A stretch of DNA of 64,000 nucleotides from Desulfobacterales bacterium (GCA_050053515.1 JASFTQ010000001.1:4-64003), one strand, 5' to 3'; positions 8,402 to 60,718 are shown, numbered from the stretch's first letter. The notes: generated by a model not told the origin, from the letters alone. Made by a program: numbers and translations.

Positions 8402-8663
8402 TTCAGGCATTCGCCTTTTCAATCGCTGATTTTAAAGATACCGCATAGAATCAAAATGCAGCACGCTGTGTGGGTATGCGCAATGATTTATGCCATTCTG
8501 TATAATTGGAGCTCACCGCATTGAAGGGCGAGGCCCGCCATGCAGGGCTGGTCAATTTGAGTTTTTAGCATAAATATTGTTTAATCGAGATGCAACCATT
8601 TTTTGAAATTATGCTTTAACTTTCCGGACTTATTTAGTAGAAACTTAGCATCATTTAATAGTT

Positions 8664-8877: not shown

Positions 8878-8922
8878 ATTTAATAGTTAACAAACGGAAA
8901 ACGAAAAAAGGGGTGCCGCAAA

Positions 8923-38975: not shown

Positions 38976-41402
38976 ATGATTGGATTTATGCAACCAGAAT
39001 ATCTTAAAAAAAGCCTGGCAGAAATACCAAAAGACCTTTCTATCTTACCCCTGCGAAATATCGTTGCCTTTCCTTTCATGATGCTGCCTTTGTCGGTTGG
39101 AATTCCGCGGTCGGTTAGACTGATCGAAGATGCATTAAAAGGCGATCATTTGATCGGACTTCTGGCCAGCAAAGACGGATCGATTGACGAACCGGTGCCG
39201 GGCCAGATTTACGAAATCGGGACAGTGGCGAAATTGCACCATGCCGTACGAAGCCATGAAGAACATATGCACGTCGTGGTTGAAGGGCTAGAGCGCTTTC
39301 GGTTGAAGCACTGGCTGACCACCGAACCTTATCTCCAAGCCTCTATTGATCTTTCTCCAGATATCGTTGAGCCAGGGATTGAACTGGATGCCTTGATGCA
39401 CAGCTTGCGTGATTTAGCCAAGCAAATTATTACTCTCTTGCCGAATTTACCGGAAGATGTCGGCAATTTCCTTGATCAAGTAGAAGAACCACGATACCTT
39501 ATTTACATGGTTGCAGCCAATTCACGGCTCAATATGAAAACCAATCAGCGGCTATTAGAAATGGATCATCTCAAGGATAAATATCAAGCATTAATCTATC
39601 AACTAACGCGACAGAAAGAAGTATTAACTCTTGGCCGCAAGATTCAAACCGAAGTTCGAGAAAAAATGAGCAAGGCTCAACGGGAATACTACCTGCGCGA
39701 ACAACTCAAGGCCATTAAAAAAGAACTTGGCGAAACGGATGATATTGAATCTGAAGCCGTCGAATATGCCGTAAAAATTGAAAAAACGGATATGTCCGAA
39801 GAAGCCAGGAAAGAGGCGCAGCGAGAATTAAAACGGATGAAAGGGATGGCTCCGCAAGCAGCAGAATATGCGGTGATTAAAACCTATCTGGACTGGCTGC
39901 TGGAACTTCCTTGGAATGTGACCAGCCAGGATCAGTTGGATGTCAACGACGCCCGCAGTGTGCTGGATGAAGATCATTATGATTTGCAGGACGTCAAAAA
40001 TCGAATCATTGAATATCTTGCGGTACGCAAGCTGGTCTGCGAACGTGAGGAAGAATTTAAGCCTGAAACCTGTGTCTTCGACGACAAGGCCATGGGTGCT
40101 ATTCTCTGTTTCGTCGGACCCCCCGGTGTCGGCAAGACCAGCCTGGGGCAAAGTATTGCCAGAGCTCTGGGGCGAAAATTTACCCGCATGAGCCTGGGCG
40201 GCATGCGAGATGAAGCCGAAATTCGGGGACATCGCCGCACCTATATCGGGGCCATGCCGGGCCGTATCATCCAGGCGATCAAGCGAGCAGGCACCCGCAA
40301 TCCGGTCTTCATGCTGGATGAAGTGGACAAAATCGGAACAGATTGGCGTGGAGATCCTAGCAGCGCACTGCTGGAGGTCCTTGATCCCGCCCAAAACCAT
40401 GCTTTTCGCGATCACTACCTGGATGTAGACTTTGATCTGAGTGATGTGATGTTTATTACCACGGCCAACCAACTTGAGACCATTCCACCACCCTTGCGTG
40501 ACCGAATGGAAATTATTCATCTGGAAGGATATACAGAGTATGAGAAGATCCATATTGCCAAGAATTTTCTGGTGCCCCGGCAGCTTAAAGCAAATGGGCT
40601 GCGCAAAGAAGAAGCAATATTCACCACAGACGCTTTGCGAAAAATTATACAAAGTTACACCCGGGAGGCCGGGGTGCGAACCCTGGAGCGCCAGATTGGG
40701 ACAGTTTGTCGTAAAGTTGTTGTAAAAATTGCCGCCGGGGAATCAATTCATGAAGAAGTTACACCGACCGCCGTGCGAGGATATCTCAAAAAAGAAAAAT
40801 TCGAATCCGAAGCTTCCGAGATAATCGACACTCCGGGGATTGCCACTGGCCTAGCGGTAACGGCTACCGGTGGTGACATTTTATTTATCGAAGCCACCCG
40901 CATGCCGGGTAAAGGCAAGCTGACTTTAACCGGTCAACTGGGCGACGTCATGCGTGAAAGTGCTCAAATTGCCCACAGCTACGTGCGGTCAAAGACTGCT
41001 CAGTTGGAAATTAATTCAGAAGATTTCGAAAAAAATGATGTGCATTTGCATGTGCCGGCCGGCGCCATTCCTAAAGACGGCCCCTCGGCAGGCATTGCAA
41101 TGGTAACCGCCATCGCAAGCCTATTCAGTGGGAAACCCGTACATGGCGATGTCGGTATGACCGGCGAAGTAACATTACGGGGCCGAGTGCTGTCGGTCGG
41201 TGGTATTAAAATGAAGGTTCTGGCTGCCCATCGCGCCGGAATTACCACTGTGGTCCTGCCCAGAAAAAACGAACCTGATCTGGAGGAATTACCGGAAGAT
41301 GTGCGTAACGACATAAACTTTATTCCTATCGAGCAAATCGATGAAGCCCTGAAAGTGGCACTGGCCGCTGACAGGTTAAATGAAAAAAACAAGAAGAGTT
41401 AA
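38976..41402 (+). CDS. lon: ATP-dependent protease La (Lon)
   Basis: 808 aa. It has the LON N-domain, Walker A GPPGVGKTS, Walker B FMLDEVDK and the catalytic PKDGPSAGIAM ... GGIKMKVLAAHRAG region. Confidence 0.95.
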   Translation: MIGFMQPEYLKKSLAEIPKDLSILPLRNIVAFPFMMLPLSVGIPRSVRLIEDALKGDHLIGLLASKDGSIDEPVPGQIYEIGTVAKLHHAVRSHEEHMHVVVEGLERFRLKHWLTTEPYLQASIDLSPDIVEPGIELDALMHSLRDLAKQIITLLPNLPEDVGNFLDQVEEPRYLIYMVAANSRLNMKTNQRLLEMDHLKDKYQALIYQLTRQKEVLTLGRKIQTEVREKMSKAQREYYLREQLKAIKKELGETDDIESEAVEYAVKIEKTDMSEEARKEAQRELKRMKGMAPQAAEYAVIKTYLDWLLELPWNVTSQDQLDVNDARSVLDEDHYDLQDVKNRIIEYLAVRKLVCEREEEFKPETCVFDDKAMGAILCFVGPPGVGKTSLGQSIARALGRKFTRMSLGGMRDEAEIRGHRRTYIGAMPGRIIQAIKRAGTRNPVFMLDEVDKIGTDWRGDPSSALLEVLDPAQNHAFRDHYLDVDFDLSDVMFITTANQLETIPPPLRDRMEIIHLEGYTEYEKIHIAKNFLVPRQLKANGLRKEEAIFTTDALRKIIQSYTREAGVRTLERQIGTVCRKVVVKIAAGESIHEEVTPTAVRGYLKKEKFESEASEIIDTPGIATGLAVTATGGDILFIEATRMPGKGKLTLTGQLGDVMRESAQIAHSYVRSKTAQLEINSEDFEKNDVHLHVPAGAIPKDGPSAGIAMVTAIASLFSGKPVHGDVGMTGEVTLRGRVLSVGGIKMKVLAAHRAGITTVVLPRKNEPDLEELPEDVRNDINFIPIEQIDEALKVALAADRLNEKNKKS

Positions 41403-44375: not shown

Positions 44376-44801
44376 GATTTTTCCCTAATCATCGGATCTC
44401 GCTAGATATCAGTGTTATCGATATGGCAAGTCCCTGAAATCATACTAATAAATTCAGACACACAGTTGACTATTCGATATGAAAGAACTGAGTTGCCGCG
44501 GCCTTGTAAAACAGATAGCAGTCCAATGGAGAACTTCAGGTTCCGATTATTACGGTAAAAGAATTCTCAAATCCTTTTTTTGGGATTCATGCCCCGCCGT
44601 GGAGTAGCCGTCGACAAATAAAACATGTGATTTTAACAACTTAATCATTTTGGCTCACTAATTGCTTTATTTTGAGATGGGAGTCTCGCATTGATCATAA
44701 AAACAATGGGAGCGAATACCCATTTTATTTTGGGCGCAAAAATATTTCGGCGATATCCAGTAGCTTTTCTTAGTATTAGTAATCGGGACAACCAAAAGTG
44801 A

Positions 44802-44921
44802 GGTGATAATAGTGCAGCACCGGTGGACGGCTTGATGATCACCACCGAAGCCCTGGTTTCTGAAAAGCCGGAGAAGAAAAAGAAACCGGCAATGCCGGAG
44901 ATGGATGAAGAAAGATATTAA
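44802..44921 (+). pseudogene. groEL: relic of a groEL 3' end (C-terminal about 35 codons only)
   Basis: This 39-codon open frame has no usable start. It translates to GDNSAAPVDGLMITTEALVSEKPEKKKKPAMPEMDEERY*. The AA.V.GLMITTE..V...P core matches the conserved GroEL C-terminus (E. coli [20 protein letters not shown]) followed by a PAMP..M tail. I saw no GroEL homology upstream. Confidence 0.5.
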
Positions 44922-45078: not shown

Positions 45079-45591
45079 TTGAATAGAATCCGCATTTATC
45101 TCCCGTGTATATTTTTAGCAATGATTTTCGGATCTGAAACTGTCGTAATTGGTCAAGGACCTGCTGAAAAAATGTGTATCCCGAAAATTATTATAATTCA
45201 GCCCCCTGAAACGGTAGAGGCCAAAAGAAATTCAGTTGAATTTCCACATACCAGTCACTTCAAATTCCCCTGCAGAAAGTGTCACCATACATGGAAAGGG
45301 GATGCTGCCATCGTTAATTGTACAACCTCCGGTTGTCATGATGTGACCGTTTCGCCCATTAAGTCTAAAAAGAAAGGCTCAAAGAAAGTAAAAGCGATGA
45401 GGTACTATAAGACAGCTTACCATACCCTGTGTATAGGATGCCATCGAGATATTAAACTTAAAAACAAAGCACTGGAGGAGTCAAATCGGAAACTAATTTA
45501 CAAACTGCGTTATCCCGGGCGGAAACCAACTTACAAACTGCAGTATCACGGCCCCACCAGCTGTAGTAGGTGTCATCCGAAGGAAAAATAA
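45079..45591 (+). CDS. tetraheme cytochrome c3 family protein
   Basis: 170 aa with a signal peptide. The heme sites are CRKCH, CTTSGCH (CX4CH), CIGCH and CSRCH. It has a TTG start preceded by AAGGAG. Confidence 0.8.
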   Translation: MNRIRIYLPCIFLAMIFGSETVVIGQGPAEKMCIPKIIIIQPPETVEAKRNSVEFPHTSHFKFPCRKCHHTWKGDAAIVNCTTSGCHDVTVSPIKSKKKGSKKVKAMRYYKTAYHTLCIGCHRDIKLKNKALEESNRKLIYKLRYPGRKPTYKLQYHGPTSCSRCHPKEK

Positions 45592-45627
45592 TTCGTGAAA
45601 GGGAGAAGCAAAAGTGAGGTGATAATA

Positions 45628-46566
45628 ATGCAGCCCCGAGATCAAAAGACGTTGCTGGTGGCAATGGACGTATCCGAGCGAAGTAAAAACACTGTTAAGC
45701 AGTTGGCTAGAATCGATCGCTTCCGAGAATACAAGATTGTTTTATTTCATGTTTTCAATCCAATACAGGAAATTTATTGGGATCTAGAAATAGATCCTAA
45801 GGCGATTGTGTCTGAGAAAGACATTTTTGCTTGGGAAGCTGAGAAGGAAAAGAAGACGACCGATTTCATGGAACAGGCACAAAACCTTCTTGTACGCAGC
45901 GGGTTTAATAAGGATTTCTTAGCGGTAAAAATTCAGCCACGTTTAAAAGGAGCCGCTAGAGATTTCATCGCTGAAGCTCGGCGAGGATACCATGTTTCGG
46001 CAATTCGACGACGCGGAATGTTACAAGACACATCCGGCATCGTGGGGAGTGTATTCAGCAAACTTGTTGAAGCGATCTCTTTTGTTCCTTTGCTAATTAT
46101 CGGCAAGCAACCTTTTTCCGGTAATATTATCATCGGGATTGATGGTTCTGAAAACGCTTTGCGAGCAGTTGATTTCGTAGGCGAGTTACTGGGGGGATCT
46201 GACTGCAGGGTGCATTTATTAAGTGTTGTGCGCAGGATTCAAGGTTTCGGACAGAAGCAACATCAGTGGCAGACGCTAAGTAAAATGATTGAGCCCTTTT
46301 TCAAAAGAAAACTGACGGCATCGCTTGAGGAATCCAAAAAACGGTTAATGGTAGCTGGATTTACCAGTGAACAGCTATCCGCCAAGGTCATCACAGGCGA
46401 GGACAGTCGTGCCGGCTGCCTTGTTCAGGAAGCCGAAAGGTTTGGCTGTGATACCATTGCGCTGGGAAGAAAAGGCTTATCGCAAGTAATGGATTTCTCC
46501 ATGGGAGGTGTGACGAGAAAGGTTATCCAACTGGCCCAAGATAAAAGCATCTGGGTGATAAATTAA
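45628..46566 (+). CDS. universal stress protein with tandem USP domains
   Basis: It has two USP domains, and the second carries the ATP motif LGRKGLSQVMDFSMGGVTRKV. I prefer ATG 45628, preceded by GAGGTG, over the track GTG at 45595. Confidence 0.85.
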   Translation: MQPRDQKTLLVAMDVSERSKNTVKQLARIDRFREYKIVLFHVFNPIQEIYWDLEIDPKAIVSEKDIFAWEAEKEKKTTDFMEQAQNLLVRSGFNKDFLAVKIQPRLKGAARDFIAEARRGYHVSAIRRRGMLQDTSGIVGSVFSKLVEAISFVPLLIIGKQPFSGNIIIGIDGSENALRAVDFVGELLGGSDCRVHLLSVVRRIQGFGQKQHQWQTLSKMIEPFFKRKLTASLEESKKRLMVAGFTSEQLSAKVITGEDSRAGCLVQEAERFGCDTIALGRKGLSQVMDFSMGGVTRKVIQLAQDKSIWVIN

Positions 46567-48147: not shown

Positions 48148-48217
48148 TAGCTGACCTACCACAGGGGAGACGTTCCATTGCGAACGTCTCCCCCAATTTT
48201 ATACGAAATAGATAATT

Positions 48218-48432
48218 CAGGGGCCGGGGTATTTTTTTCACGGCAAGATGCCGGGTTGTTGCCTGCCAAGCCTGACAGCGGCAACTGCCTTGCATTTTAC
48301 TGCTAACTATTTAAAACTTTCACACCAACAAGAACCGACACCGGGTTTTGCCTTTCTCGGCGGCAATAGCCCTCTGCCCCTTTGAAGCACAGGGGCGATC
48401 ATCTTGTCGTGAAAAAAACACCCCGACCCCTC
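48218..48432. mobile_element. MITE-like element, family A, copy 2
   Basis: It is a full-length counterpart of 8664-8877 in the opposite orientation and lies between convergent genes. The flanks (GATAATT / AAATATT) are AT-rich but not an exact duplication. Confidence 0.7.
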
Positions 48433-48442
48433 AAATATTCTG

Positions 48443-49390
48443 TTATGTTGTCGCGCTAAAATGCTTTTTCGAAAAGGCGACTCGCTCCTCAATCGCCGTC
48501 AGGTTATGGTGATGCTGTTCAACCAGCTTTAGACGCGGCAGCAATCCTGATCGGTTGGCGATTTGAATATTGAGACCCGGACGGGCGTTCAGCTCCAAAA
48601 TTAACGGCCCTTTATCTTTGTCCAGCACAAGATCAACACCGATGTATCCCAGACCAATCAGCTCATAACAACGGGATGCAATATGAAGCAGTGTATCCCA
48701 GCTCGCAATTTGAACACCGGTAACAGGGTTTCCGGTATCCGGGTGCTCGGTAACAATATTATCTCGCCACACCGCGGTTAGGGTTGTTCCGGTAGTGATA
48801 TCAATTCCGGCGCCAAGCGCCCCCTGGTGTAAGTTGGCTTTGCCGCCGGACATGCGGGTTGGCAGCCGTACCATGGACATCACCGGCACCCCCAGAAAAA
48901 CGATCACCCGAATATCCGGCACTCCCTGATAACTGATGGCTTCGAATACGGGATCAAATTGCACCCGATATTCGATCAAGACTTTATCCGGCTGCCCGCC
49001 TAAACTATAGATACCGCTGATGATATTAAACAGATGATAGGCGACTTCTTCAGGGTTCAACAGTGTACCGTCGACTTTGCGATACATATTCTTGGAGCAT
49101 CCGGAGATGACCAAAATGCCTTCCCCGCCTGAACCTCTGGATGGCTTTATGGCAAATTCCGAATAAGATTTCAGCAACGCCTCGATATGCCGAACCTGAT
49201 ATTCCGTCTCCACCACTTCATAAAGCTCCGGTACGGCAATACCGGCTTTCAAGGCAATTTTTTTGGTCTGCAGCTTGTCATCCACAAGCGGAAATAAGCG
49301 GCGCGGATTGTAGCGCAGGGTATATTCGGCGTTGCGGCGGTTGATGCCCAGCACACCCATTTCGGCGATGCGTTTCTTTATCCTAAACAT
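48443..49390 (-). CDS. alpha-L-glutamate ligase-related ATP-grasp protein (RimK-related)
   Basis: 315 aa with ATP-grasp blocks (FAIKPSRGSGGEGILV ... ILELNARPGLNIQIANR). It overlaps the upstream 7TM gene by 8 nt. Confidence 0.75.
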   Translation of the reverse strand: MFRIKKRIAEMGVLGINRRNAEYTLRYNPRRLFPLVDDKLQTKKIALKAGIAVPELYEVVETEYQVRHIEALLKSYSEFAIKPSRGSGGEGILVISGCSKNMYRKVDGTLLNPEEVAYHLFNIISGIYSLGGQPDKVLIEYRVQFDPVFEAISYQGVPDIRVIVFLGVPVMSMVRLPTRMSGGKANLHQGALGAGIDITTGTTLTAVWRDNIVTEHPDTGNPVTGVQIASWDTLLHIASRCYELIGLGYIGVDLVLDKDKGPLILELNARPGLNIQIANRSGLLPRLKLVEQHHHNLTAIEERVAFSKKHFSATT

Positions 49391-50918
49391 CGGATTTTAT
49401 CTCGGTTAAAGCCTTAAAACGGCGAAGTTCCATTAACCTGAAACCGGAATAGCGTCCCAGCAATATGGTTGCGGCAAGCAATATCAGAAGCAATTCGGGA
49501 AATACAAACACCAGATGTTCAACCAATTTAATGCTCATTATCAGATAGGCGATCACTGCTGCGACAATTGATCCGACCCCCTGTTTGATGGTTTCAAAAG
49601 CCCCCAGCTCATCCCATACGATGGACATCCGTTCGATGGTCATGGTTAAAATGACCATGGGAAACAGCGCCACGGAGAGCCCTCGCTCAAGCCCGAGTTT
49701 GTTTGTCAGCACACTGAGAAATGCCATCAAACCGATCACGACAATTAATATTGCCGCTAATCGCGGTACCACCAGTAATTTCAAATGGTCAAAGTATAAA
49801 CGAATCAGCAGCCCGATGCCGACCACCGTGGAAAATAAAAAAACACCCCACAGCAGCCGGGTCTCTCTAAATGAAAGGGCAATCAAAACCGGCATAAACG
49901 TGCCGAATGTCCGGATACCGATAACATTGCGAAGAATAACCAGAAACAAAACACCGACGGGAACCAGCAATGCCACTCGATATACGGCCTGGGTTTTGGC
50001 TGGCAGGCTGAACAGGGAGAAATCCAGCAAAAACGGCTTTTTGATGATGCCCTTTTCAACCGCCAGCTGCAGAGCGGCTTCCTCACCGCGCACAACCGAT
50101 AACGATACCCGCAGATTTTTTACTCCTAGGGCCTGCACCAGCGGTTCCACGCCTTTCCACCATGCCAGATAGTCTTCAGGCACGTCACGCTCTCCCGAAA
50201 GCGGTTCGTAGGAAATCCAGCGGTTCTTATCATAAACCTCCAGCCAGTGTATAATGGGAGCCTCTCTTCGTTGCGCTTCCAACCGCAGGCCGTGTACAGC
50301 ACGGGCGTGGATGCCGGCCAGGGCCAGCAATTGAACGGCAAGGTCGACCTTCTTTTGAACCGTCGCTTTTTTACCTAAAAACAAGGCGACATTATCCCCC
50401 GGTTGCGAAGCGTTCAGCTGTTTTAATAATGCTGCCACCAGACTGTCCGTATCTGCCGACTTTTCACGGACATCGAATAGGATCGCCCGGGATGCCTCGC
50501 GATAGGCACCGCTAAAATCAGGTTGGCTCGGTTCGGCTTTGACCGGCTGGGTTGATTTGATATCTCGATCTACCCGATATACCGATGCCTTATAAAACAG
50601 GGTTTGCGATCCTCGGGCCTTGCGAATCGACCAGATGACCTTGCGCTTTCCTTCCTCGGTGGAAACGTCAACCCCGTACCCGCGGGATATGAAATTTTCG
50701 TTCACGATAGTAAAACGCTTCGAAGTGCGCGGGATGCGCATGGCAACCTTTACAGGTGTGTCACCGGCCTCGAATGTGAGGTGAGCCTCGATGTCCCAAA
50801 CATAGGTCAGGGTCTCAGGGATCAGGGGGAAATCTAAGACCAGGATTTTATATAAAAAAAGCGCAAGGCCCACGGCAGTTAAAAATCCCGATAAAAAATA
50901 CAAGTGGCGCTTGTTCAT
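49383..50918 (-). CDS. inactive-transglutaminase-like periplasmic domain fused to a 7-TM module
   Basis: 511 aa. An N-terminal TM is followed by a soluble region of about 270 aa and then about seven closely packed TM helices. This architecture co-occurs with RimK-related ligases. Confidence 0.65.
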   Translation of the reverse strand: MNKRHLYFLSGFLTAVGLALFLYKILVLDFPLIPETLTYVWDIEAHLTFEAGDTPVKVAMRIPRTSKRFTIVNENFISRGYGVDVSTEEGKRKVIWSIRKARGSQTLFYKASVYRVDRDIKSTQPVKAEPSQPDFSGAYREASRAILFDVREKSADTDSLVAALLKQLNASQPGDNVALFLGKKATVQKKVDLAVQLLALAGIHARAVHGLRLEAQRREAPIIHWLEVYDKNRWISYEPLSGERDVPEDYLAWWKGVEPLVQALGVKNLRVSLSVVRGEEAALQLAVEKGIIKKPFLLDFSLFSLPAKTQAVYRVALLVPVGVLFLVILRNVIGIRTFGTFMPVLIALSFRETRLLWGVFLFSTVVGIGLLIRLYFDHLKLLVVPRLAAILIVVIGLMAFLSVLTNKLGLERGLSVALFPMVILTMTIERMSIVWDELGAFETIKQGVGSIVAAVIAYLIMSIKLVEHLVFVFPELLLILLAATILLGRYSGFRLMELRRFKALTEIKSDV

Positions 50919-51436
50919 TCATCCGATCCTTCCCGGCAGCTTGGTTTAATGGTGAAGGTAAGCCCCGGATCGACAATAAATGATCCTCTAAGAAAGCTCC
51001 GGCCGATCAGCATCTGGTAATTAAAGCCACTGCGGTCCTCCAGGTTGACTTCGACTTTTTTGTATGTGTTTCCAACACAGATTCCGAGTTTGATCACCGG
51101 GCGTATGTCGGCTTTTTGGCCAGTCTGTTTGATCTTGGCTGTCCGGATGACCTCCGCTTCAAGTGTCTCTATGCGATTTTTGTAATTGCGAAGATCAAAC
51201 CGTACCCAGGTTTCACCATCTCGTGTAAATCGTTCCAAATGCTTTGCATTCAGCGAAGAATTTCTGGCCCCGGTGTCCAGTTTGGCCTTGATTTTCATAT
51301 TTCCGGGATGAATGCTGACCGTTTCAATCCACCCGACGATGCGTTTTTCCGCAGCCACAGCAAAGATCGACAGGCCAACAGAGATGGATACGATCAGTAC
51401 CAGAATTTTTGATAATCTTGCCATCATTTTAATCAT
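50915..51436 (-). CDS. retropepsin-like aspartic protease (DUF785 / RimB-like) with an N-terminal signal or anchor
   Basis: 173 aa. The KLDTGARNSSL motif is a D-T-G aspartyl-protease signature. The start of the downstream 7TM gene overlaps this gene's stop as ATGA (50915-50918). Confidence 0.65.
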   Translation of the reverse strand: MIKMMARLSKILVLIVSISVGLSIFAVAAEKRIVGWIETVSIHPGNMKIKAKLDTGARNSSLNAKHLERFTRDGETWVRFDLRNYKNRIETLEAEVIRTAKIKQTGQKADIRPVIKLGICVGNTYKKVEVNLEDRSGFNYQMLIGRSFLRGSFIVDPGLTFTIKPSCREGSDE

Positions 51437-51538
51437 TTCCTCATGCCGTTTCCGGCTACCTGTGCGGCTGATTCCCGATGGGTTTCCCCCCTGACTTCAA
51501 TGGTTTCCGTGACCACCCCAAAGGCTTCGGGATCAATT

Positions 51539-53830
51539 TTAGGGGTGATCTTTTTTTTCATCAATAAGTCTCAGTTCCAGGGGTTTCTGCGTGTCCAGAT
51601 GAACATCACGTTGGGGAAACGCGATTACCAGGCCTGCCTCACGGAAAAGTGCATCGACACGAAAGCGAACACTGCTTTCGATCTTGCGGCGTTCGATGAT
51701 CTGGCGAATACTAATCCAGAAATAAACATCGAAAATCAGTGCGTTATCGCCAAAATCATTAAACAGCACGAAAGGCTCTGGCTCCGGAAGTAGATTTTCA
51801 ATTCCTTTGGTAGCTTCCAAGAGCAGCTTTTTAACACACTCAACCGGAGATCCATAGATGACACCTACGGTTACACGGGTTCGAATTTTTTTATCGGATA
51901 GGGTCCAGTTGGTAATGTTTTTTTCAAGGAAACTGCTGTTGGGTACCAAGATGTGAATATTTTCTCCCGTGCGAACCCTTGTGCTTCGTGCCCCAATATC
52001 TTCAACTTGTCCCAAAATGCCCTCGATCTCAATCAGATCCCCGATGCTGATAGGACGCTCGGCCATTATGATGAATCCGCTGATAAAATTGTTGATCAAA
52101 TTCTGGGCCCCGAAACCCACACCAATGGCGATGGCACCGCCTAAAAATGCAAATGCTGCCACAGGAATATTGACCATACGCAGGGCAAACAGAAAAACAA
52201 GCAGATAGGCTAGAAACAAAAGCATTTTTTGAAAGGCCGAGGCCGTGGTTTCTTTAAGCCGCGCAAAGGAAAGCAGTCGCCGGGTCAGGATGCGAACCAA
52301 ATACTTGGCGATCAGAATGCCGATAATCAGAATAAAAAAAGAAACAATCAGCTTTCTGACCGTTACCGGTCGATTATCGATGACCCAAATCTCAAAATTC
52401 CAAATACTTTGAATTTCATCCCAAATTCGAGAAGCCTTCCGTCCAATGGGAATTTTATCGAGCTTTAATGAAATCTCTTCTACAAGCCGGCTGTCCACCT
52501 GCTCGGTCAACAAAATTGTAGAAATATATTCGAAGCGATGATTTGCCAGTGTTTGCATGGCTCCCAGTTGATTTTCCAAATGGTTTTTAACTTCTGCACC
52601 AAACTCCCCTTCTGCAATTTCTTTTTCGAGGGTGGAAATTTGAGACTGCAAATTGGCCTGGTAATTCTGCTGCAGGGTGATGGCATTTTCGAGGTTTGCA
52701 AGGTAATCCTCGGCTTCCTCATTCCAGCCGGTAAGTTTTTGGGTATCGACTTCCCCCCTGATGAGAGTATGACGCTTTCGGACGGTATCCTCCTGATGCC
52801 CGAGAAGTCTTGATGTATCTTCCATTTGTTCGATGATATTTTGATAGGTTGTATGCCAGGCTTGGCGTGCTTTTAAGGCGGCTTCCGCGATGATTGACTC
52901 ATTTTGATTCCTGGCCATCTTTAATTTTTTTAATGCTTCGAGCCAGGCCTCTTCTGCCTTTTTTTGTTCACGAGTGAGTTTTTCTAAATTTTCGGCCAAC
53001 ACCTTTCTCTTATTGGTAAGTGAGTTGAGCTGCTTTTGCAGGTCGGCTTCGTTAAAGGTAAGGTGGTTACGGACCCAAACTACTTGTTGCAAATATAACT
53101 GTTCCCGAAGCTTTGCGATCTGCAATTCGATTTCTTGGTTTTCCTGAGTTGCCTTCTCCAGGTAAAAGAGGGCTTCAAGATAGTCCTTTTCCGCCTCTGC
53201 CTTTTCAAACCTCCATGCAAGACTCCGGGACACTGCCTCTGGCGGCTGGATCTCAATTTGTTCTTTTAACGTTCGCCACTGTCCCGCCGCTTTTTCAAAC
53301 CGCGAGGTTATATTTTCCGATGATTTTTTCGCAAACTTTACCGCAAAAGCCAAAGTTGATTTCTGCTGTTGGGCGGCCGACAGCTCCCCTAATAGGTTGT
53401 CGTAAAAGCTCAAAAAATAGGGGGGGTCTTGAGAAACGCCTTTCTTTTCTTGAGTAGAAAGTTTTTGCAGTAAAAAATTTTCTTCTTCTTTTAAAGCGAT
53501 TTTCTTTTTTACAGCCGTTAAAAGCTGCATATAGATCGATTGCGTAGCCTCTAATGTCGCAGTTTGTTCCCGAATCTCTTTTAATGAAACCCCCAGCTGA
53601 TTGGCGGATTTTTCGGTCTCCGTCTTTTGGGCTAATAGAATTTTTTCCTTTAACGCCTGTACCTTTTCTTGAATTTCATCTGGCATGGGGAGTTTAAAAT
53701 TTGCACGCTTAGCCGGGAGACCAACAGGTATTTCCTTGACCTGGGCACCAGTTGAATGTGACCAGTTGAAAATAGCGCATAAAAAAGCCAGCCCTATAGC
53801 CATTCGATTCGATAAATCTGAGCATCGCAT
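51539..53830 (-). CDS. MscK/KefA-like mechanosensitive channel with a long periplasmic coiled-coil N-domain
   Basis: 763 aa. A signal peptide is followed by a heptad-rich region of about 440 aa, TM helices and the MscS core (GAQNLINNFISGFIIMAERPISIGDLIEIEGILGQVEDIGARSTRVRT). Confidence 0.85.
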   Translation of the reverse strand: MRCSDLSNRMAIGLAFLCAIFNWSHSTGAQVKEIPVGLPAKRANFKLPMPDEIQEKVQALKEKILLAQKTETEKSANQLGVSLKEIREQTATLEATQSIYMQLLTAVKKKIALKEEENFLLQKLSTQEKKGVSQDPPYFLSFYDNLLGELSAAQQQKSTLAFAVKFAKKSSENITSRFEKAAGQWRTLKEQIEIQPPEAVSRSLAWRFEKAEAEKDYLEALFYLEKATQENQEIELQIAKLREQLYLQQVVWVRNHLTFNEADLQKQLNSLTNKRKVLAENLEKLTREQKKAEEAWLEALKKLKMARNQNESIIAEAALKARQAWHTTYQNIIEQMEDTSRLLGHQEDTVRKRHTLIRGEVDTQKLTGWNEEAEDYLANLENAITLQQNYQANLQSQISTLEKEIAEGEFGAEVKNHLENQLGAMQTLANHRFEYISTILLTEQVDSRLVEEISLKLDKIPIGRKASRIWDEIQSIWNFEIWVIDNRPVTVRKLIVSFFILIIGILIAKYLVRILTRRLLSFARLKETTASAFQKMLLFLAYLLVFLFALRMVNIPVAAFAFLGGAIAIGVGFGAQNLINNFISGFIIMAERPISIGDLIEIEGILGQVEDIGARSTRVRTGENIHILVPNSSFLEKNITNWTLSDKKIRTRVTVGVIYGSPVECVKKLLLEATKGIENLLPEPEPFVLFNDFGDNALIFDVYFWISIRQIIERRKIESSVRFRVDALFREAGLVIAFPQRDVHLDTQKPLELRLIDEKKDHP

Positions 53831-53957
53831 GAGATCAGACTCTTTTCTACGGGTTCTATAAGTTTTTTATCGTAGCCTACATTGAGCGTTTTTTTTCCGG
53901 CCATTGCGAGCAACCGATCCAGTCGGTGGCGAGGCAATCCCAAAAGCCGGGTCGAGT

Positions 53958-56573
53958 TTAGTTTGGACTGTAGTGGTCCACATCGATTTTATTGTCCTTG
54001 AGGTCAACCCGGATGACGTTCCCTTCAGGGATGTCGCCAGCGATCAAGGCCCGACCGATGCGGGTTTCCAGCTCCCTTTGAATATATCTGCGCAGCGGAC
54101 GCGCACCATATACCGGATCATACCCTGATTCAGCAATAAACCGGCGGGCAGCTTCGGTTATTTCCACCTTCACGTGCTGCTCCTCCAGACGTTTAGAGAG
54201 ATCTTGGGTCAACAATCCGACGATTTGTTCAACCTCATCTAGCGTCAAGGGTTTAAATAAAACGATATCATCGACGCGGTTGAGAAATTCCGGGCGAAAT
54301 TGCTGCCTGAGCTCACCCATGACCCTTTTTTTAGCGGATTCTTCGATTTCACCCCGATCCGTGACGCTTTCCAGCAGATAATGGGAGCCGATATTGCTGG
54401 TCATGATGATCACGGTGTTCTTGAAATCAACCGTGCGCCCCTGCCCGTCGGTGAGGCGGCCGTCATCGAAAATTTGCAGCAGCACACCAAACACATCGTG
54501 GTGGGCTTTTTCGATTTCGTCGAACAGAATCACGCAATACGGTTTACGGCGCACGGCTTCAGTCAGTTGCCCGCCTTCTTCATAACCCACATATCCGGGA
54601 GGTGCTCCGAGCAATCGCGATACCGTGTGTTTTTCCATATACTCGCTCATGTCGATGCGCACCATGCTTTCTTCGGAGTCAAACAGCGCTTGGGCCAGGG
54701 TTTTGGCAAGTTCCGTTTTACCCACGCCCGTTGGACCCAGAAAAATGAATGTCCCAATGGGCCGCCGGGGATCCTTAATGCCGGAGCGTGCCCGGATGAC
54801 GGCATCCGCTACCAGTTGGACGGCTTCGTTCTGTCCGATTACCCGTTCATGGAGCACTTCGTCCAGACGCAATATTTTTTCCCGCTCGCCTTCCATCAGC
54901 CGGGAGACCGGAATTCCCGTCCAGCGTGAGATGATTTCGGCGATTTCCTCTTCAGAGACTTCTTCACGAAGCAGGCGTTCGCCCGCATGCCTTTGAGAAA
55001 TCATTTCCTCCTCGGTTTTCATCTGGCGCTCCAGATCAGCCAGCCGTCCGTATTTTAATTCCGCAGCGCGATTGAGATCATACTTTCTTTCGGCCACTTC
55101 GATCTCATGACGAATTTTTTCAATCTCTTCGCGGATGGCCTGGACTTTTTTGATCGCCTCCTTCTCGGTTTCCCATTGAGCGCGCATGGCACTGTTCTTT
55201 TCCCTGAGATCAGCCAGCTCTTTTTGCAGCGTATTGAGCCGATCCTTACTGGAGCGGTCGCGCTCTTTTTTAAGAGCGGCTTCCTCGATTTCCAGCTGCA
55301 TTATCCTGCGGGAAACCTCGTCCAACTCGGTGGGCATGGAGTCGATTTCGGTACGGATCATGGCGCAAGCCTCGTCCACCAGATCAATGGCCTTGTCCGG
55401 TAGAAATCGGTCACTCACGTACCGGTTGGAAAGGGTGGCGGCGGCCACCAGCGCAGCATCCTGGATTTTAACACCGTGATGGACCTCATAGCGCTCCTTG
55501 ATGCCGCGCAGAATGGAAATGGTGTCTTCCACGGTGGGTTCGGACACCACAACGGGTTGAAAACGTCTTTCCAAGGCCTTGTCTTTTTCGATGTATTTGC
55601 GGTATTCATCCAAGGTGGTGGCCCCGATACAGTGCAACTCCCCCCGGGCCAGCATCGGTTTGAGCATGTTGCCGGCATCGATGGCTCCTTCAGCCTTACC
55701 GGCCCCCACGATGGTGTGGAGCTCATCGATAAACAGCAGGATACCGCCTTCAGATTCTTTGATCTCCTGCAACACCGCCTTGAGGCGTTCTTCGAATTCA
55801 CCGCGGTATTTGGCACCGGCTACCAGGGCACCCATATCCAGGGCGAAGATGGATTTATCTTTCAACCCTTCCGGTACGTCCTGGCGCACGATCCGGTGAG
55901 CCAGTCCCTCGGCAATCGCTGTTTTACCGACCCCGGGGTCGCCGATCAGCACCGGATTGTTCTTGGTTTTACGGCTGAGAATCCGGATGACCCTGCGAAT
56001 TTCGCCGTCGCGACCAACCACCGGATCGAGTTTGCCTTTGCGGGCTTCCTGGACCAGATCCCTACCGTATTTCTGTAATGCTTCGTAAGTACCCTCCGGA
56101 TCGGCGCTTGTCACCCGCTGGTGTCCGCGCACCGTGGACAGGGTTTTCAGGAGGGAATCGCGCGTGATGCCAAATTCCTCGAGCACTTTTCCGGACGGCG
56201 TAGTGCCGCCCTCATCAATAAAAGCCAGCAGGATATGCTCTACGGACACATATTCGTCTTTCAGCTTGCGAGCTTCATCCTGGGCTTTGACCAACAGCTT
56301 ATTTAGCCTCTGGGTGACATATACCTTGCCGGGCTCGATGCCGGGACCACTGACGCGCGGCTTTTTTTCAAGCTCCTGTTGCAGCCGACCCCGGAATGAA
56401 TCCACAGGGATTTCCAATCGCTGCAACAGTCGCAGAAAAAGCCCGTCGGACTGCTCTGTCAGAGCCAACAGAAGGTGCTCTCCATCAACCTCCTGGTGGC
56501 CGAAGTTTATGGCCTGGGTTTGAGCCTCCTGCAGAGCTTCTTGTGATTTGATGGTAAATTTGTTGAGATCCAT
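53958..56573 (-). CDS. clpB: ATP-dependent disaggregase ClpB
   Basis: 871 aa. It has the Clp N-domain, two AAA+ modules (GDPGVGKTA and GPTGVGKTE) and a long middle coiled coil. Confidence 0.95.
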
Positions 56574-56597
56574 TGTTGTAACCTCCTGAAAAGTAGC

Positions 56598-56731
56598 TAA
56601 ACCTGTTTTTCCAGTTCGCGAATGCTGGCTTCCAGCTCCTCGATGCGGTCCAACAGGTCCAGGACCTCACCGATGCCGGAATAATTGATGCCCAGGTCAT
56701 TTCGAAGTCTTAAAATTCTTTCACTATTTGA
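56598..56731 (-). pseudogene. relic of a MerR-type heat-shock regulator / chaperone modulator (HspR/CbpM/DafA-like), C-terminal part only
   Basis: This open frame has no start codon. It translates to [44 protein letters not shown] and ends 24 nt before the clpB ATG. The pattern RL..DLG.N..G......LLDR...L resembles C-termini of HspR/CbpM-type proteins, which in several bacteria sit directly upstream of clpB. I could find no HTH-encoding 5' part. Confidence 0.4.
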
Positions 56732-56885
56732 TCATATATCTTTACATGATTTATTGGTTTTTAACCCCGGCAGGCATATTTAGTCAAGATAGGTTTTACT
56801 CTCAATACACCATCTTATGTGATTAACATTCGTTATTTCATTATTCCACAATTACACCCTGCCAACATTTCCTCCAGGGCTGAGG

Positions 56886-57185
56886 TTATAGTGATTGTCA
56901 AAATGATGTTCCGATAGCCCGAGGTGCAGGCTGGGGGTAAATTTTTATCGACAAGCTGATTTCCCCGGTGATGCTAAGCGACAAAGGGTTGTTGCTGCCT
57001 GGTTGGGCAAACAGCGGTGAGTCTTTGTGTTAACCACAATACTCTGGTAACTGGCAGGGGGGGGCAATTGATAGGAAGTGGCCATTTCCAAGCCAATGGG
57101 GCAGTATTTGTGCATCTTGACGACAAAAATTTACCCCCTGCCGACACCTCGGGCAGTCATAATGTTATTTTGACAAGCACTATAA
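56886..57185. mobile_element. MITE-like element, family B, copy 2
   Basis: It is about 300 bp and collinear with 38594-38899 in the same orientation. The arms are TTATAGTGATTGTCAAAATGATGTT...GGGGGTAAATTTTTATCGACAAGCTGAT and ...CTTGACGACAAAAATTTACCCCC...TTTTGACAAGCACTATAA. Confidence 0.65.
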
Positions 57186-57259
57186 AAGCAGCCGGGTTTG
57201 ATAACGACGATGATGGATGAAAGTCACAAAAGGAGGGGGCTAAGGTTATGTTGGATTAT

Positions 57260-59545
57260 TTAGAATTCCATTTCATCCAATGCTTTGCGAACACCAGTGA
57301 CCGTGGTTTCAGACAGGAGCCGTTTTGCAAAAGTTTCAGCATCTGATAACCTGAGGCTCGCAATGAACTTCTGTATGCCCGGCAGAAACCCTGGATATAC
57401 GCTGAGACTGCGTATTCCAATACCAAGTAAAAATGGAATATAATCCGTTTCATGAGCCATCTCACCACACACCGAAAGCTCCTTTTTTTGCTTTTTTGCC
57501 GCCCGAGCTGTTTTTGCAAGCCCTCTTAGGACTGCCGGATGGTAGGGTCGGTAATAGTGGGCTACTTTTTCATTGCCCCGATCGACTGCCAGCATGTACT
57601 GAATAAAATCGTTTGTGCCGATCGATAGAAAATCGACCGCGTTTGCAAGTTCATCGATGATTTCCAGCACGCAGGGCAGCTCGATCATCGCTCCGATCCG
57701 GGGTTTGGGGTGATGGGCTAGATCTTCACGCTGCAAGGCGTCGATGCAATCATAAACCTCACGTTGTGCCTCCTGGTACTCATCCAACGAAGAAATCATG
57801 GGAAACATAATGCTCACTGTTTCCGTTTCTGAACCGGCCCTTAAGATTGCCCGCAGTTGTTGGCGGAACATCTCGCGGTGGTACAGGGTAAAACGTATGG
57901 CTCTGAGTCCGAGATCAGGATTGTCCTCTTGCGGGGTGGCTGCATATGCCGGCATTTTTTTGCCGCCGAGATCCAGGGTCCGAATCGTTACATTTTTTCC
58001 CCGCATACCATCAAACAGCTGTTTATAGACAATATATTGTTCTTCTTCAGAAGGAACGGATGATCGAATCAGAAACGGAAATTCGCTCCTGTACAACCCT
58101 ACTCCCTCGGCTTTCAATTCTCTGGCAAGCGAGAGGTCCCGCAGAATATTGACGTTTGCCAGAAGTTGAATGCGAACCCCGTCTTTTGTGTGGGTTTTGG
58201 AAGACATGGATTTGGCCGCGACCGTGGTATCCAAGGGTAATGGTTTTTGAGGCGCATACTCATGGATAATTGATTCAGAAGGATTGATGTATATTTCACC
58301 AACGCCGGCATCCATGATTAAATGCGTGTTGAAGGGCAAATCCAATAGCTCCTGCCGATCAGCAACAATCATTGGAATTTGTAAGGACTGGGCTAAAATT
58401 GAGACGTGTGATGTGATTCCGCCATGTAATAAAATAATTCCCTTAACTCCCTCGGATGCCAGTTTAAGAACATCGGAGGGATATAACTCCCGCGCAATAA
58501 CAATCCGATTTTCACCCCAAAGTGATATATCATGCTCACCCGGCTCGAAATTTTCCAGAATCCGTCCGGCAAGGTCCTTAACATCATTGGCTTTTTCCCT
58601 GATGTGGACGAAAGGACTTTCCGAGAATAATTTGACGTAGCGCTCGGCGACCAATTTGACAGCCGCCATTGGAGCCGTACCTTCCCGGATCAGATTTTCC
58701 ATCTGATTTACAAACCGAACATCTTTCAGAATCATTAAATGAGCCGTAAAAATAAGGGAGGCACTCTCCGGCATTTGATGGACGAATCGTGCCTGGAGTT
58801 CTGTGATTTGATCGACCGTGGCGCGAATTGCACGATGAAAGTCTTTAAGGGTATACTTGAAATCGTATTCAACGTTTGGGTCGAGCAACATGTCATAAAC
58901 TCTATCGATTACGATAACCGTTGCATGGGCATAACCCGGGGAAGCAACCTGACCTTTGATTATCTGGAGATCATCAGGAATTGGTTTTTTGATGTACTTA
59001 TCCTTTTTCCGGCCGAGGTCTTTTAAAAGTCGTGCATTACCGACCACGCCTGCCAGTTGTGAGGCAATGGCTCGCATGACGATAATATCAAGTTCATCAA
59101 AATGATCGCTCTTCTCATGCTGGACCACCAAAACGCCAATTTTCTCTAGACCCCTGAGAATCGGCACCGACAGAAAAGATTTGAATCGATCCTCATGGGC
59201 TTCCGTAAAATATTTGAATTTTGGATTGCGGTCCGCAAAGGCTTCTATTGTCGGCTCGAGTTTCTCCAAGGTAAGTCCCACCAAGCCTTCGCCAATTTTC
59301 ATTCGAATCTTGCCAATCGCTTCCGGGTTCAGCCCCCTGGTGGCAGTTAAAATCAGCTCACGGGATGGATCATCATAAAGATAGATAGAGCAGACATCGG
59401 CATCCATATGCCCGGCAACCATTTCTACGGTACGCTGCAGAAAGGTTTCAATGTTTTCGCTGCCTGTCAGCAATGCGGCAAGTTCCCCGATATCGCAAAC
59501 CAGGCTAAGGTGGGCATGATCCTTTTTTATTATGGTACGATCCAT
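57260..59545 (-). CDS. ptsP: GAF-domain phosphoenolpyruvate-protein phosphotransferase (EI-Ntr)
   Basis: 761 aa. It has an N-terminal GAF domain and the EI core with the phospho-His region LLHGGITSHVSILAQSL, GTNDFIQY and the active Cys in LSVCGEMA. Confidence 0.9.
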   Translation of the reverse strand: MDRTIIKKDHAHLSLVCDIGELAALLTGSENIETFLQRTVEMVAGHMDADVCSIYLYDDPSRELILTATRGLNPEAIGKIRMKIGEGLVGLTLEKLEPTIEAFADRNPKFKYFTEAHEDRFKSFLSVPILRGLEKIGVLVVQHEKSDHFDELDIIVMRAIASQLAGVVGNARLLKDLGRKKDKYIKKPIPDDLQIIKGQVASPGYAHATVIVIDRVYDMLLDPNVEYDFKYTLKDFHRAIRATVDQITELQARFVHQMPESASLIFTAHLMILKDVRFVNQMENLIREGTAPMAAVKLVAERYVKLFSESPFVHIREKANDVKDLAGRILENFEPGEHDISLWGENRIVIARELYPSDVLKLASEGVKGIILLHGGITSHVSILAQSLQIPMIVADRQELLDLPFNTHLIMDAGVGEIYINPSESIIHEYAPQKPLPLDTTVAAKSMSSKTHTKDGVRIQLLANVNILRDLSLARELKAEGVGLYRSEFPFLIRSSVPSEEEQYIVYKQLFDGMRGKNVTIRTLDLGGKKMPAYAATPQEDNPDLGLRAIRFTLYHREMFRQQLRAILRAGSETETVSIMFPMISSLDEYQEAQREVYDCIDALQREDLAHHPKPRIGAMIELPCVLEIIDELANAVDFLSIGTNDFIQYMLAVDRGNEKVAHYYRPYHPAVLRGLAKTARAAKKQKKELSVCGEMAHETDYIPFLLGIGIRSLSVYPGFLPGIQKFIASLRLSDAETFAKRLLSETTVTGVRKALDEMEF

Positions 59546-60474
59546 ACGGCCATGTCGGTGCAGTCTTCGATTACTTTGCGGGTAATGCTGCCCATGGTGA
59601 ATTCGGCCTCATTGGAAACGCCGCGTCTACCCATAACAATGGTGCCGCATTCGTGACGTTTCGCTTCGCGAAGGATGTCTTTTGCCGGTCTGCGGCTTCC
59701 ATCGGCAACCCTTGCCGAAATCAGAGCTGCATCGACGCCCGCATCTATCAGCGTCTGATGGGCTTTTTTCATATAGGGGGTGATCTCCTCTTCGGCGGTT
59801 TGCTGCCAGAGTTCTTCAAGCTCTGAAGCCCCTTCAAATATCTCTTTGGGGATAAACCGGTTGAGATTTCGTTTGCTGTGAAAAAAGTGAATTTTGCAAG
59901 TGGTTGCGGAAAGCATAAATCCGGCATGATCCACCGCCCGCAGGGTATTTTCTGAGCAATCCAGGGCAATAAGGATGTTTTTGGCTTTGACGGATCCTTT
60001 TATCATCCAGATCGGACACCCGCGACAGAGTTCCAGTACCTTGTTCGAGACCTCCCCCATAAATAAAGCCTCCAGGCGACTTTTTCCCCGGGTTGTCATT
60101 AGAACCGTATCCGCCTTTTTTTCATGCACCCAGGTGCAGATGTCCCGGGCAACCCCCACCTCTTTGTTACGGAAAGTGGTGTGAATGGATTTGTCACTAC
60201 AGCCTTTGGTTATCAGTCTTGTTTTGGCCTCATGAAGGATATGTTCGGCAAGTTCAATATTGTTCTTTTCAATTTTTTTCAGCTGCGCTGCCGTTTGCCG
60301 GTTTTTTTTGCTTTCCTCGACCAGAATAGGCGGCAATGCAGGCAATATGTAAAGTAAGGATAGATTTATCCTGTGACCCGATTCATACAAAAGTTTTATA
60401 TAGTCTACGGAATGCAGGGCGTTTTTAGAACCATCAACTGGTACTGCAATCATTTTACTTGTTTCCGTTTCCAT
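59530..60474 (-). CDS. universal stress protein with tandem USP domains
   Basis: 314 aa with two USP domains. The second has the ATP motif MGRRGVSNEAEFTMGSITRKV. It overlaps the ptsP start by 16 nt. Confidence 0.85.
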   Translation of the reverse strand: METETSKMIAVPVDGSKNALHSVDYIKLLYESGHRINLSLLYILPALPPILVEESKKNRQTAAQLKKIEKNNIELAEHILHEAKTRLITKGCSDKSIHTTFRNKEVGVARDICTWVHEKKADTVLMTTRGKSRLEALFMGEVSNKVLELCRGCPIWMIKGSVKAKNILIALDCSENTLRAVDHAGFMLSATTCKIHFFHSKRNLNRFIPKEIFEGASELEELWQQTAEEEITPYMKKAHQTLIDAGVDAALISARVADGSRRPAKDILREAKRHECGTIVMGRRGVSNEAEFTMGSITRKVIEDCTDMAVWIVP

Positions 60475-60507
60475 GCGGTTGACCCCCTCATTTTGCTTTT
60501 ATTAATT

Positions 60508-60633
60508 CAGGGGTCGGGGTATTTTTTTCACGGCAAGATGCCGGGTTGTTGCCTGCCAAGCCTGACAGCAGCAACTGCCTTACATTTTACGGTCGGTTGT
60601 TTAAAACTTTTACTCCAAAACACCCCGACCCCT
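60508..60633. mobile_element. MITE-like element, family A, copy 3 (internally deleted)
   Basis: 126 bp. The first ~80 bp match 48218-48300 and the last ~20 bp match the other terminus. The central part is missing. TTAATT is present on both flanks (60502-60507 and 60635-60640). Confidence 0.65.
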
Positions 60634-60718
60634 TTTAATTATCCTATGACGATCATATCCGTCTAAAAACCATTTTCCAGATGAGTATGAGCTATTACAG
60701 TTTATCCGATTCCAAATT

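Follow-up and report, generated by a model that had tools for sequence, protein, structure and literature searches.

An rloABC orthologue in an uncultured Desulfobacterales bacterium and its possible part in polyglutamate turnover across the inner membrane

What does a set of three overlapping genes do that joins a secreted protease and a cytoplasmic ligase to a membrane protein, and do the genes beside it belong to the same system? We addressed this question for a locus of an uncultured Desulfobacterales bacterium, known from a metagenome-assembled genome from wetland metagenomes. The whole stretch of DNA analysed, referred to here as the window, is 64 kb long, and all coordinates are counted from its first letter. 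An earlier note on this DNA had described three open reading frames (ORFs) on the minus strand that overlap by 4 and 8 nt, and their coordinates and lengths were confirmed exactly: the first two genes share 4 nt (ATGA), the second and third 8 nt. That the triad is orthologous to the rloABC operon is near certain. It adds a further member to a system that has already been named and partly characterised. The three genes are as follows.

rloA, 50915-51436, minus strand: 173 aa, secreted retropepsin-like aspartic endopeptidase (PF05618)
rloB, 49383-50918, minus strand: 511 aa, inner-membrane protein (PF14400 and PF14402, NF052267)
rloC, 48443-49390, minus strand: 315 aa, cytoplasmic ATP-grasp amidoligase, alpha-L-glutamate ligase-like (PF14397, TIGR02291)

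All three domain assignments were upheld by strong Pfam and NCBIfam hidden Markov model matches, far beyond chance. RloA matched PF05618 at 1.4e-39, RloB matched PF14400 at 2.6e-47 and PF14402 at 7.4e-99, and RloC matched PF14397 at 2.4e-92 and scored 462.7 bits with TIGR02291, above the cutoff of 314.2. NCBIfam also holds models named RloA, RloA2, RloA3 and 'osmotic stress tolerance membrane protein RloB'. With the last of these, NF052267, RloB aligned over model positions 6-506 of 508 (1.5e-136), and its score of 456.1 did not reach the cutoff of 900. Since the match is full length, this score points to a distant orthologue and not to non-membership. RloA matched the RloA1, RloA2 and RloA3 models at about 1e-36, under their strain-level cutoffs (124.6 versus 280 for RloA1, 123.1 versus 210 for RloA3). 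The RloA1 and RloB models are of the 'exception' type and tuned to close Pseudomonas orthologues. No second rloA paralogue was found within the 64-kb window.

The operon was named and characterised in Pseudomonas aeruginosa by genetics together with the structure and biochemistry of RloA (Lormand et al., mBio 2025, PMC12239564). There, rloA-rloB-rloC corresponds to PA1768-PA1767-PA1766 (rloB being PA14_41710 and rloC PA14_41730). The P. aeruginosa RloA proteins are secreted and form retropepsin-like dimers whose substrate channel is basic, and RloA cleaves runs of at least eight glutamates in vitro (PMC12239564). Loss of the three RloA paralogues is lethal under hypo-osmotic conditions, with no growth in salt-free medium, and also harms biofilm formation, beta-lactam tolerance and cell shape; deletion of either rloB or rloC rescues these defects (PMC12239564). 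The earlier note had held that neither the product nor the role of the triad had been shown experimentally. For the product this stands, and the physiological substrate of RloA and the product of RloC are still unknown in P. aeruginosa; for the role it does not, given the P. aeruginosa genetics (PMC12239564). The main interest of the locus lies in the missing product molecule of a system that in P. aeruginosa affects survival at low osmolarity, beta-lactam tolerance, biofilm and cell shape.

The window RloA matches two RloA crystal structures in the PDB, 9G58 (2.5e-27, 41% identity) and 9G59 (3.4e-24). Published functional residues of P. aeruginosa RloA (PaRloA) were transferred to it via an alignment with 52 homologues from other genomes, which gave the following correspondence.

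PaRloA K46, window RloA K52: basic, polyglutamate (polyGlu)-coordinating
PaRloA D48-T49-G50, window RloA D54-T55-G56: catalytic motif
PaRloA R92, window RloA R98: basic, polyGlu-coordinating; more variable among homologues
PaRloA K95, window RloA K101: basic; more variable among homologues
PaRloA K97, window RloA K103: basic
PaRloA R114, window RloA R112: basic, polyGlu-coordinating
PaRloA R137, window RloA R135: basic, polyGlu-coordinating

The catalytic D54-T55-G56-A57 of the window protein aligns with the D48-T49-G50 of PaRloA, and the catalytic Asp is kept in 52 of 52 homologues. Most of the mapped positions are near-invariant among them, the equivalents of R92 and K95 varying more. A hydrophobic segment at residues 11-29, followed by AVA/AE, corresponds to a signal peptide of about residues 1-28 in a heuristic prediction, so that the earlier description of a D-T-G aspartyl-protease-like protein of 173 aa with an N-terminal signal is borne out. 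The predicted mature N-terminus lines up with the point where the crystallised P. aeruginosa RloA constructs begin, and 49 of 53 sequences have an N-terminal hydrophobic segment ahead of the mature domain. Cys120 and Cys167 are both kept in 52 of 54 sequences; such a conserved pair fits a periplasmic disulfide. Gene callers were divided on the start of rloA (170 versus 173 aa). The ATG at 51427 (170 aa) has the better spacing to a GAGGAAA Shine-Dalgarno sequence and may be the start instead of 51436, the mature protein being identical either way.

A scan for RloB with one genome per species yielded at least 592 RloB-encoding stretches, and 80 loci were analysed. They come from Desulfobacterota, Nitrospirota, Bdellovibrionota, Dadabacteria, Planctomycetota (Kuenenia), Alphaproteobacteria and Gammaproteobacteria. 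In 79 of the 79 loci with enough sequence rloC follows immediately after rloB, and rloA lies immediately before rloB in 58 of 77. The commonest junctions within the triad are overlaps of 1, 4 or 8 nt. Clustering of all ORFs from the 80 loci revealed no fourth family common to them beyond lineage-level synteny. Thus, the unit is conserved in other genomes and the domain searches support the assignments made for it, the two points on which the earlier note had staked its prediction. With thousands of RloB clusters in at least six phyla, rloABC is widespread, and the retention of all catalytic and substrate-binding features in the window copy, far outside Gammaproteobacteria, argues for a conserved chemistry and not for a Pseudomonas-specific trait. 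The gene association was reportedly first predicted computationally by Iyer et al. in 2009.

An rloB-rloC pair without adjacent rloA was seen in the Steroidobacter group (L053, L057, L061, L062, L068, L076 and L080), in Woeseiaceae (L064, L065, L069 and L072) and in Kuenenia (L032). The Steroidobacter loci instead have, overlapping the start of rloB by 4 nt, an ORF for a protein of about 555 aa that by eye resembles an acyl-CoA dehydrogenase. The idea of a replacement peptidase at such loci was rejected: on visual inspection, what lies upstream resembles housekeeping genes with no relation to it (acyl-CoA dehydrogenase-like, flavin monooxygenase-like, Rho, citrate synthase-like). By analogy with P. 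aeruginosa RloA2 and RloA3, rloA may be encoded elsewhere in these genomes.

How could the three proteins work together? In the reading that we favour, and to which we give a probability of roughly 55%, the triad is an rloABC orthologue in which RloC synthesises, RloB carries or presents, and RloA trims. The three genes would be translationally coupled and serve one pathway across the inner membrane. In the cytoplasm, RloC would use ATP to make a peptide rich in glutamate, be it free poly-alpha-Glu or a tail of Glu residues attached to a carrier, glutamate being the presumed substrate. The seven-transmembrane (7TM) domain of RloB would pass or present this product at the periplasmic side, with RloC probably docking on the basic cytoplasmic face, and the catalytically dead transglutaminase-like domain of RloB would act as a binding module in the periplasm. 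RloA, as a secreted and presumably disulfide-stabilised dimer with a basic substrate channel, would cut the Glu runs and prevent a build-up of polyanion. The balance between synthesis and trimming would affect envelope and osmotic homeostasis, and imbalance would be harmful in hypo-osmotic conditions. In the window we observe gene identity, motif conservation and topology, and across phyla the conservation of the unit; the chemical steps we infer. The earlier note had proposed a membrane-coupled, poly-Glu-like ligation and trimming system. Its logic is that of the model favoured in PMC12239564, but its RimK-related ligase turned out to be only distantly RimK-like.

For RloB, we found the topology that had been read from the sequence before (511 aa with one transmembrane (TM) helix, a soluble domain of about 270 aa and about seven TM helices): one N-terminal TM leads into about 275 soluble residues, after which come seven hydrophobic helices at the C-terminal end. 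The periplasmic part (about residues 27-300) is a beta-sandwich plus a transglutaminase-like domain, and the 7TM domain (about residues 305-490) is followed by a basic cytoplasmic tail. In the AlphaFold2 model (mean predicted local distance difference test score (pLDDT) 72.6) the periplasmic part reaches 80-89 and matches 3ISR, a transglutaminase-like putative cysteine protease, (E 3e-10, about 276 aligned columns); at the sequence level, RloB retrieved nothing from the PDB beyond chance-level matches. Activity as a transglutaminase or papain-like cysteine peptidase was ruled out. Lacking any cysteine, RloB cannot form a Cys-His-Asp triad, and the triad positions are variable across 75 RloB homologues. 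In these homologues (45-87% identity), residues conserved in at least 95% are sparse in the periplasmic half and dense in the 7TM half, where they form the motifs RN..G..FGTFMP, FRET, VPRL, LFP..MTIER, FPE and GRY.G.RL. Several of the conserved charged residues sit within predicted helices (R330, N331, R351, E352, R386, E429, R430 and E475). An exhaustive search with the 7TM part alone returned 1,639 cluster representatives, 334 of them at E < 1e-30. Since almost all of the best 150 of these 1,639 are about 505-535 aa long with the 7TM domain at the C-terminus, the architecture appears essentially fixed among them. A protein that seemed to fuse the 7TM part of RloB to RloC (P0247), considered as Rosetta-stone evidence, was discarded, as it represents RloC read through multiple frameshifts in an error-rich contig.

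Purifying selection on RloB acts mostly on the 7TM half and not on the transglutaminase-like half, which may guide experiments. The 7TM module would be the working core, either a conduit or an enzyme, more than an anchor. The same contrast between the two halves would also suit a transmembrane sensor or regulator, since sensor domains tend to evolve fast, as the periplasmic domain does here, with a constant 7TM part. In such a scheme the periplasmic domain would sense an envelope cue or be processed by RloA, the 7TM part would control RloC, and the product would stay in the cytoplasm, for example as a Glu or polyGlu osmolyte store. A 7TM part fused to an extracytoplasmic ligand-binding domain is a common receptor design, and glutamate is an osmolyte. 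RimK itself is regulated by partner proteins (PMC12239564). However, RloA acts outside the cytoplasm and needs its polyGlu-binding residues in vivo (PMC12239564), and the suppression of RloA loss by both the rloB and the rloC deletion is simplest if the product of RloB and RloC reaches the compartment of RloA. In addition, the invariant charged residues within the membrane look more like a substrate path or an active site than like a relay. We therefore consider a sensor role unlikely and prefer passage or presentation of a product by RloB.

RloC has no TM segment and carries a conserved basic N-terminal helix. Its ATP-grasp motifs are kept, namely K82 and a Gly-rich loop, ANLHQGA, and D253/E266/N268 as predicted Mg ligands. 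The AlphaFold2 model (pLDDT 83, predicted template modelling score (pTM) 0.84) adopts an ATP-grasp fold, and among known structures it comes closest to ArgX/LysX, RimK, Ddl and cyanophycin synthetase (E about 1e-9 to 1e-10, template modelling scores (TM-scores) 0.45-0.56). Among these, ArgX/LysX and RimK are ligases that extend the C-terminal carboxylates of peptides. The earlier label, a RimK-like ATP-grasp enzyme, holds for the ATP-grasp part, whereas the likeness to RimK is only distant: with the RimK family model TIGR00768, RloC scored 48.8 bits versus a cutoff of 143.4 and aligned over residues 236-274 only (about 40, C-terminal), the E. coli RimK model gave 18.2 versus a cutoff of 331, and RimK in the PDB was matched by sequence at E 1e-3. 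As predicted from sequence and model, RloC is a ligase that acts on peptide or amino-acid carboxylates, in a family of its own (TIGR02291/PF14397). One low-depth metatranscriptome contig (run X17) skips 48735-48913 within rloC, that is, 177 nt or 59 codons in frame, with a 7-nt microhomology where the two sides meet; either a deletion variant present in the population or an error of assembly could explain it.

Several points weigh against synthesis by RloC, carriage by RloB and trimming by RloA. Function data for rloABC come from Pseudomonas alone, with no enzyme product known for any RloC. In 19 of the 77 loci, rloA is not adjacent to rloB. The RNA data consist of three metatranscriptomes with sparse, low-depth, unstranded contigs, although these do cover rloA, rloB and rloC, and one crosses the rloB/rloC junction, in favour of an operon. 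A transport role of the RloB 7TM part is conjectural throughout: this part was modelled at pLDDT 55-75, which is low confidence, and a structure search of the PDB with that low-confidence model found no relative. The specificity of RloC for Glu is not established, because it is deduced from the specificity of RloA alone; the RimK likeness spans about 40 residues, and the modest TM-scores are similar for Ddl and cyanophycin synthetase. Moreover, the Pfam name of PF14397 is 'sugar-transfer associated' ATP-grasp.

This name and the structural closeness of Ddl and cyanophycin synthetase, which equals that of RimK, would agree with a different chemistry. RloC might amidate or aminoacylate a non-protein envelope precursor instead of making polyGlu, for example a sugar carboxylate, a peptidoglycan or exopolysaccharide intermediate or a lipid-linked carrier, which RloB would flip or anchor and from which RloA would remove or edit a peptide moiety. 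The cell-shape, beta-lactam and biofilm phenotypes in Pseudomonas point the same way, and transposon insertions in PA1766-1768 suppress exopolysaccharide overproduction. Disruption of an RloB-type gene in a Shewanella transposon screen led to more membrane vesicles (PMC12096838). On the other hand, no glycosyltransferase or cell-wall gene is conserved beside the triad in the 80 loci, and the in vitro specificity of RloA is for runs of at least eight alpha-linked Glu within polypeptides (PMC12239564). An envelope precursor as the substrate of RloC is in our judgement decidedly improbable, and we keep to a glutamate-rich peptide as the presumed product.

Do the neighbouring genes belong to the system? 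Upstream of rloA, the following features lie on the same strand.

51462-51555, minus strand: remnant of a yitT/DUF2179-family gene, frameshifted, last 30 codons or so, recognised by tblastn and blastn to the 3' ends of relatives' yitT genes
51539-53830, minus strand: MscS-family mechanosensitive channel gene, 763 aa (PF00924, PF21082, PF21088); context, outside the conserved unit
53958-56573, minus strand: clpB (TIGR03346, 1376.8 bits versus a cutoff of 1232.1); context, outside the conserved unit

The channel protein consists of a signal peptide, a highly charged, helical and coiled-coil-like periplasmic domain of about 440 aa that has no Pfam match, a 3-TM MscS core and a cytoplasmic vestibule. 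A clpB gene and an MscK-like channel had been placed upstream on the same strand; clpB and the position are right, but the channel belongs to the MscS family and is not MscK. It has only three hydrophobic helices versus the 11 TMs of MscK, and with the MscK model NF008438 it scored 170.8 bits versus a cutoff of 991, with the C-terminal 270 aa aligned only. Over its C-terminal half it shares 70% identity with a plain MscS of 358 aa at another locus (L006), where the gene stands in a same-strand string with a yitT-like gene.

MscS-type genes recur beside the triad. A gene with an MscS core lies within 10 kb in 7 of 80 other loci, six of them within 1.1 kb (binomial P of about 6e-5 for uniform placement in the flanks, or 3.5e-4 with two related alphaproteobacterial loci merged). 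In four loci it directly flanks the triad on the same strand, upstream in L060 and L022 and downstream in L045 and L047; in L011 the two are separated by one gene, and L063 has the channel gene in convergent orientation. In P. aeruginosa, the MscS homologue cmpX (PA1775, PMC10965496) is seven locus tags from rloA (PA1768) by tag number; mechanosensitive channels are not mentioned in the mBio 2025 rloABC paper (PMC12239564). The link appears to be recurrent but a minority arrangement, and this gene clustering lends modest independent support to an osmotic or mechanical role, which gives some substance to the earlier note's hint of an osmotic link. It independently ties the system to osmotic and mechanical stress and may guide experiments. 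A bolder suggestion would be that the RloB 7TM part is a previously unrecognised kind of polyGlu peptide translocase or membrane-embedded enzyme, that Rlo sets the level of periplasmic polyanion and thereby turgor and envelope mechanics, and that the recruitment of MscS genes, repeated independently in the window and about six other lineages, is the trace of this function. We hold it tentatively, as a somewhat unlikely idea.

The gene order in the window could also mean that clpB, the channel gene and rloABC form one co-transcribed, functionally selected operon against heat, aggregation and hypo-osmotic shock. The five genes share a strand, with gaps of 127 nt (clpB-channel) and 102 nt (channel-rloA), and no terminator-like site was found on the minus strand in either gap. 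About 27 nt separate yitT from rloA in the ancestral arrangement, too little for a promoter directly ahead of rloA, and here rloABC may therefore depend on read-through. The six MscS-type genes within 1.1 kb of the triad elsewhere would fit such an operon, and so would a close relative (L083) with three hsp20 genes upstream of rloA in the same slot. However, the closest relatives (RloB 66-87% identical) lack clpB and the channel at this position and carry, L083 apart, a gene for a YitT/DUF2179-family membrane protein directly upstream of rloA. Of the 80 other loci, just one has ClpB in the vicinity of RloB, encoded on the opposite strand. A weak promoter-like match, TTGATG-17-TAAAAT, is present at the 3' end of the channel gene, and no RNA contig across the channel/rloA junction was found in the three sparse, unstranded metatranscriptomes, nor was any RNA run listed with this junction.

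The junction itself suggests how the arrangement arose. The 102-nt gap between channel gene and rloA shows 76-86% DNA identity to the 3' end of the relatives' yitT gene. This yitT remnant has a 1-nt insertion, fills the gap and includes the conserved Shine-Dalgarno and start region of rloA, and the homology starts exactly at the TAA stop codon of the channel gene. As a dead fragment is still in place, the junction is young. An assembly chimera was excluded by contigs from four independent DNA runs that span the junction. A 42-aa ORF at 51433-51561, which overlaps rloA by ATGA and was considered as a fourth coupled gene, proved to be the frameshifted yitT 3' remnant. The synteny phosphorylase-Usp-GAF/PtsP ... 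rloABC is common to the window and two relatives. Between ptsP and rloA (51462-59545 in the window), each differs: the window has clpB, the MscS-family gene and the yitT remnant, L083 has three hsp20 genes, and L082 has PALP-DUF1611-creatininase-MR_MLE-yitT. Stress or chaperone genes fill this slot in two of the three (window, L082 and L083). Because the interval differs in each relative, we read the window arrangement as a replacement in a variable interval that truncated yitT. From this comparison, the adjacency of clpB and the MscS-family gene to rloA is best described as a recent local rearrangement and not an ancestral unit, and the view of a conserved clpB/MscK context has to be given up. 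A single stress operon is doubtful; the window copy is an ordinary rloABC orthologue, and its striking neighbours are there by recent rearrangement.

Repeats of one intergenic family were observed at both outer edges of the clpB-channel-rloABC block and elsewhere in the window, which also contains several stress-related genes.

48212-48438, no strand assigned: dispersed element of 227 bp with 39-nt terminal inverted repeats, directly downstream of the rloC stop
56886-57137, no strand assigned: divergent member of this repeat superfamily, which lies between clpB and the GAF-PtsP gene and borders the variable interval on its other side
8650-8880 (minus strand), 60503-60640 and 38595-38841: further repeat copies or half-copies
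38976-41402, 45595-46566, 53958-56573 and 59530-60474: stress and proteostasis genes

Its members span about 230-250 bp and are bounded by terminal inverted repeats (about 39 nt, GGGGCCGGGGTATTTTTTTCACGGCAAGATG...); five copies or half-copies, in two subfamilies, occur in the 64 kb. The copy at 48212-48438 folds as a long hairpin (z = -7.5), and its part at 48219-48300 is covered in one metatranscriptome by contigs of depth of about 80 with foreign flanks, from which we take the element to be multi-copy and transcribed. It has no Rfam match, and scans for Rfam families and tRNAs, over the window and over the region downstream of rloC, gave nothing significant. The element is either similar to miniature inverted-repeat transposable elements or to repetitive extragenic palindromic sequences, or it is a small RNA family. 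A separate 48-nt direct repeat (44775-44822 and 45591-45638, 83% identical) contains a Shine-Dalgarno-like GAGGTGA. Its second copy spans the start (45595) of a Usp-domain ORF, directly after a class III cytochrome c gene (45079-45591), and the repeat may be a duplicated translation-initiation or regulatory region, judging from its position. The 25 kb around the triad are rich in stress and proteostasis genes, encoding Lon protease, two tandem-Usp-type proteins, ClpB, a sigma-54 activator and GAF-PtsP.

How does the triad compare with known systems? With P. aeruginosa rloABC it shares the three families, their order and strand, and in RloA the signal peptide, the D-T-G motif and the polyGlu-coordinating basic residues. 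It differs in its origin, Desulfobacterota versus Gammaproteobacteria, and in its flanking genes, and the flap of the window RloA is 8-10 residues shorter than in P. aeruginosa RloA. RimB-RimK of the rimABK system, which polyglutamylates ribosomal protein S6, likewise pairs a retropepsin-like endopeptidase for Glu runs with an ATP-grasp ligase. P. aeruginosa RloA cleaves RimB substrates in vitro, but rimB shows no genetic interaction with rloA (PMC12239564). In contrast to RloA, RimB is cytoplasmic and has no signal peptide, and RimB-RimK has no membrane component; the window RloA scored 76 bits with the RimB model NF052261, short of the cutoff of 200. LysX/ArgX-LysW provides the best structural match of the RloC model (3VPB, E 3.8e-10, TM-scores 0.50/0.56). 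LysX and ArgX are ATP-grasp enzymes that extend a small protein by an amino acid, attached at the carboxylate of its C-terminal Glu, whereas the window locus has no gene for a LysW-like carrier and RloC matched TIGR02144 at 1.8e-5, far below the cutoff. Finally, PgsBCA/CapBCA of Gram-positive bacteria, together with CapD/PgdS, offer a functional analogy, in that a membrane-associated, ATP-dependent polymerisation of Glu is combined with an extracytoplasmic polyGlu hydrolase; these proteins belong to families unrelated to Rlo, PgsB being Mur-ligase-like and not ATP-grasp, and their linkage is gamma and not alpha.

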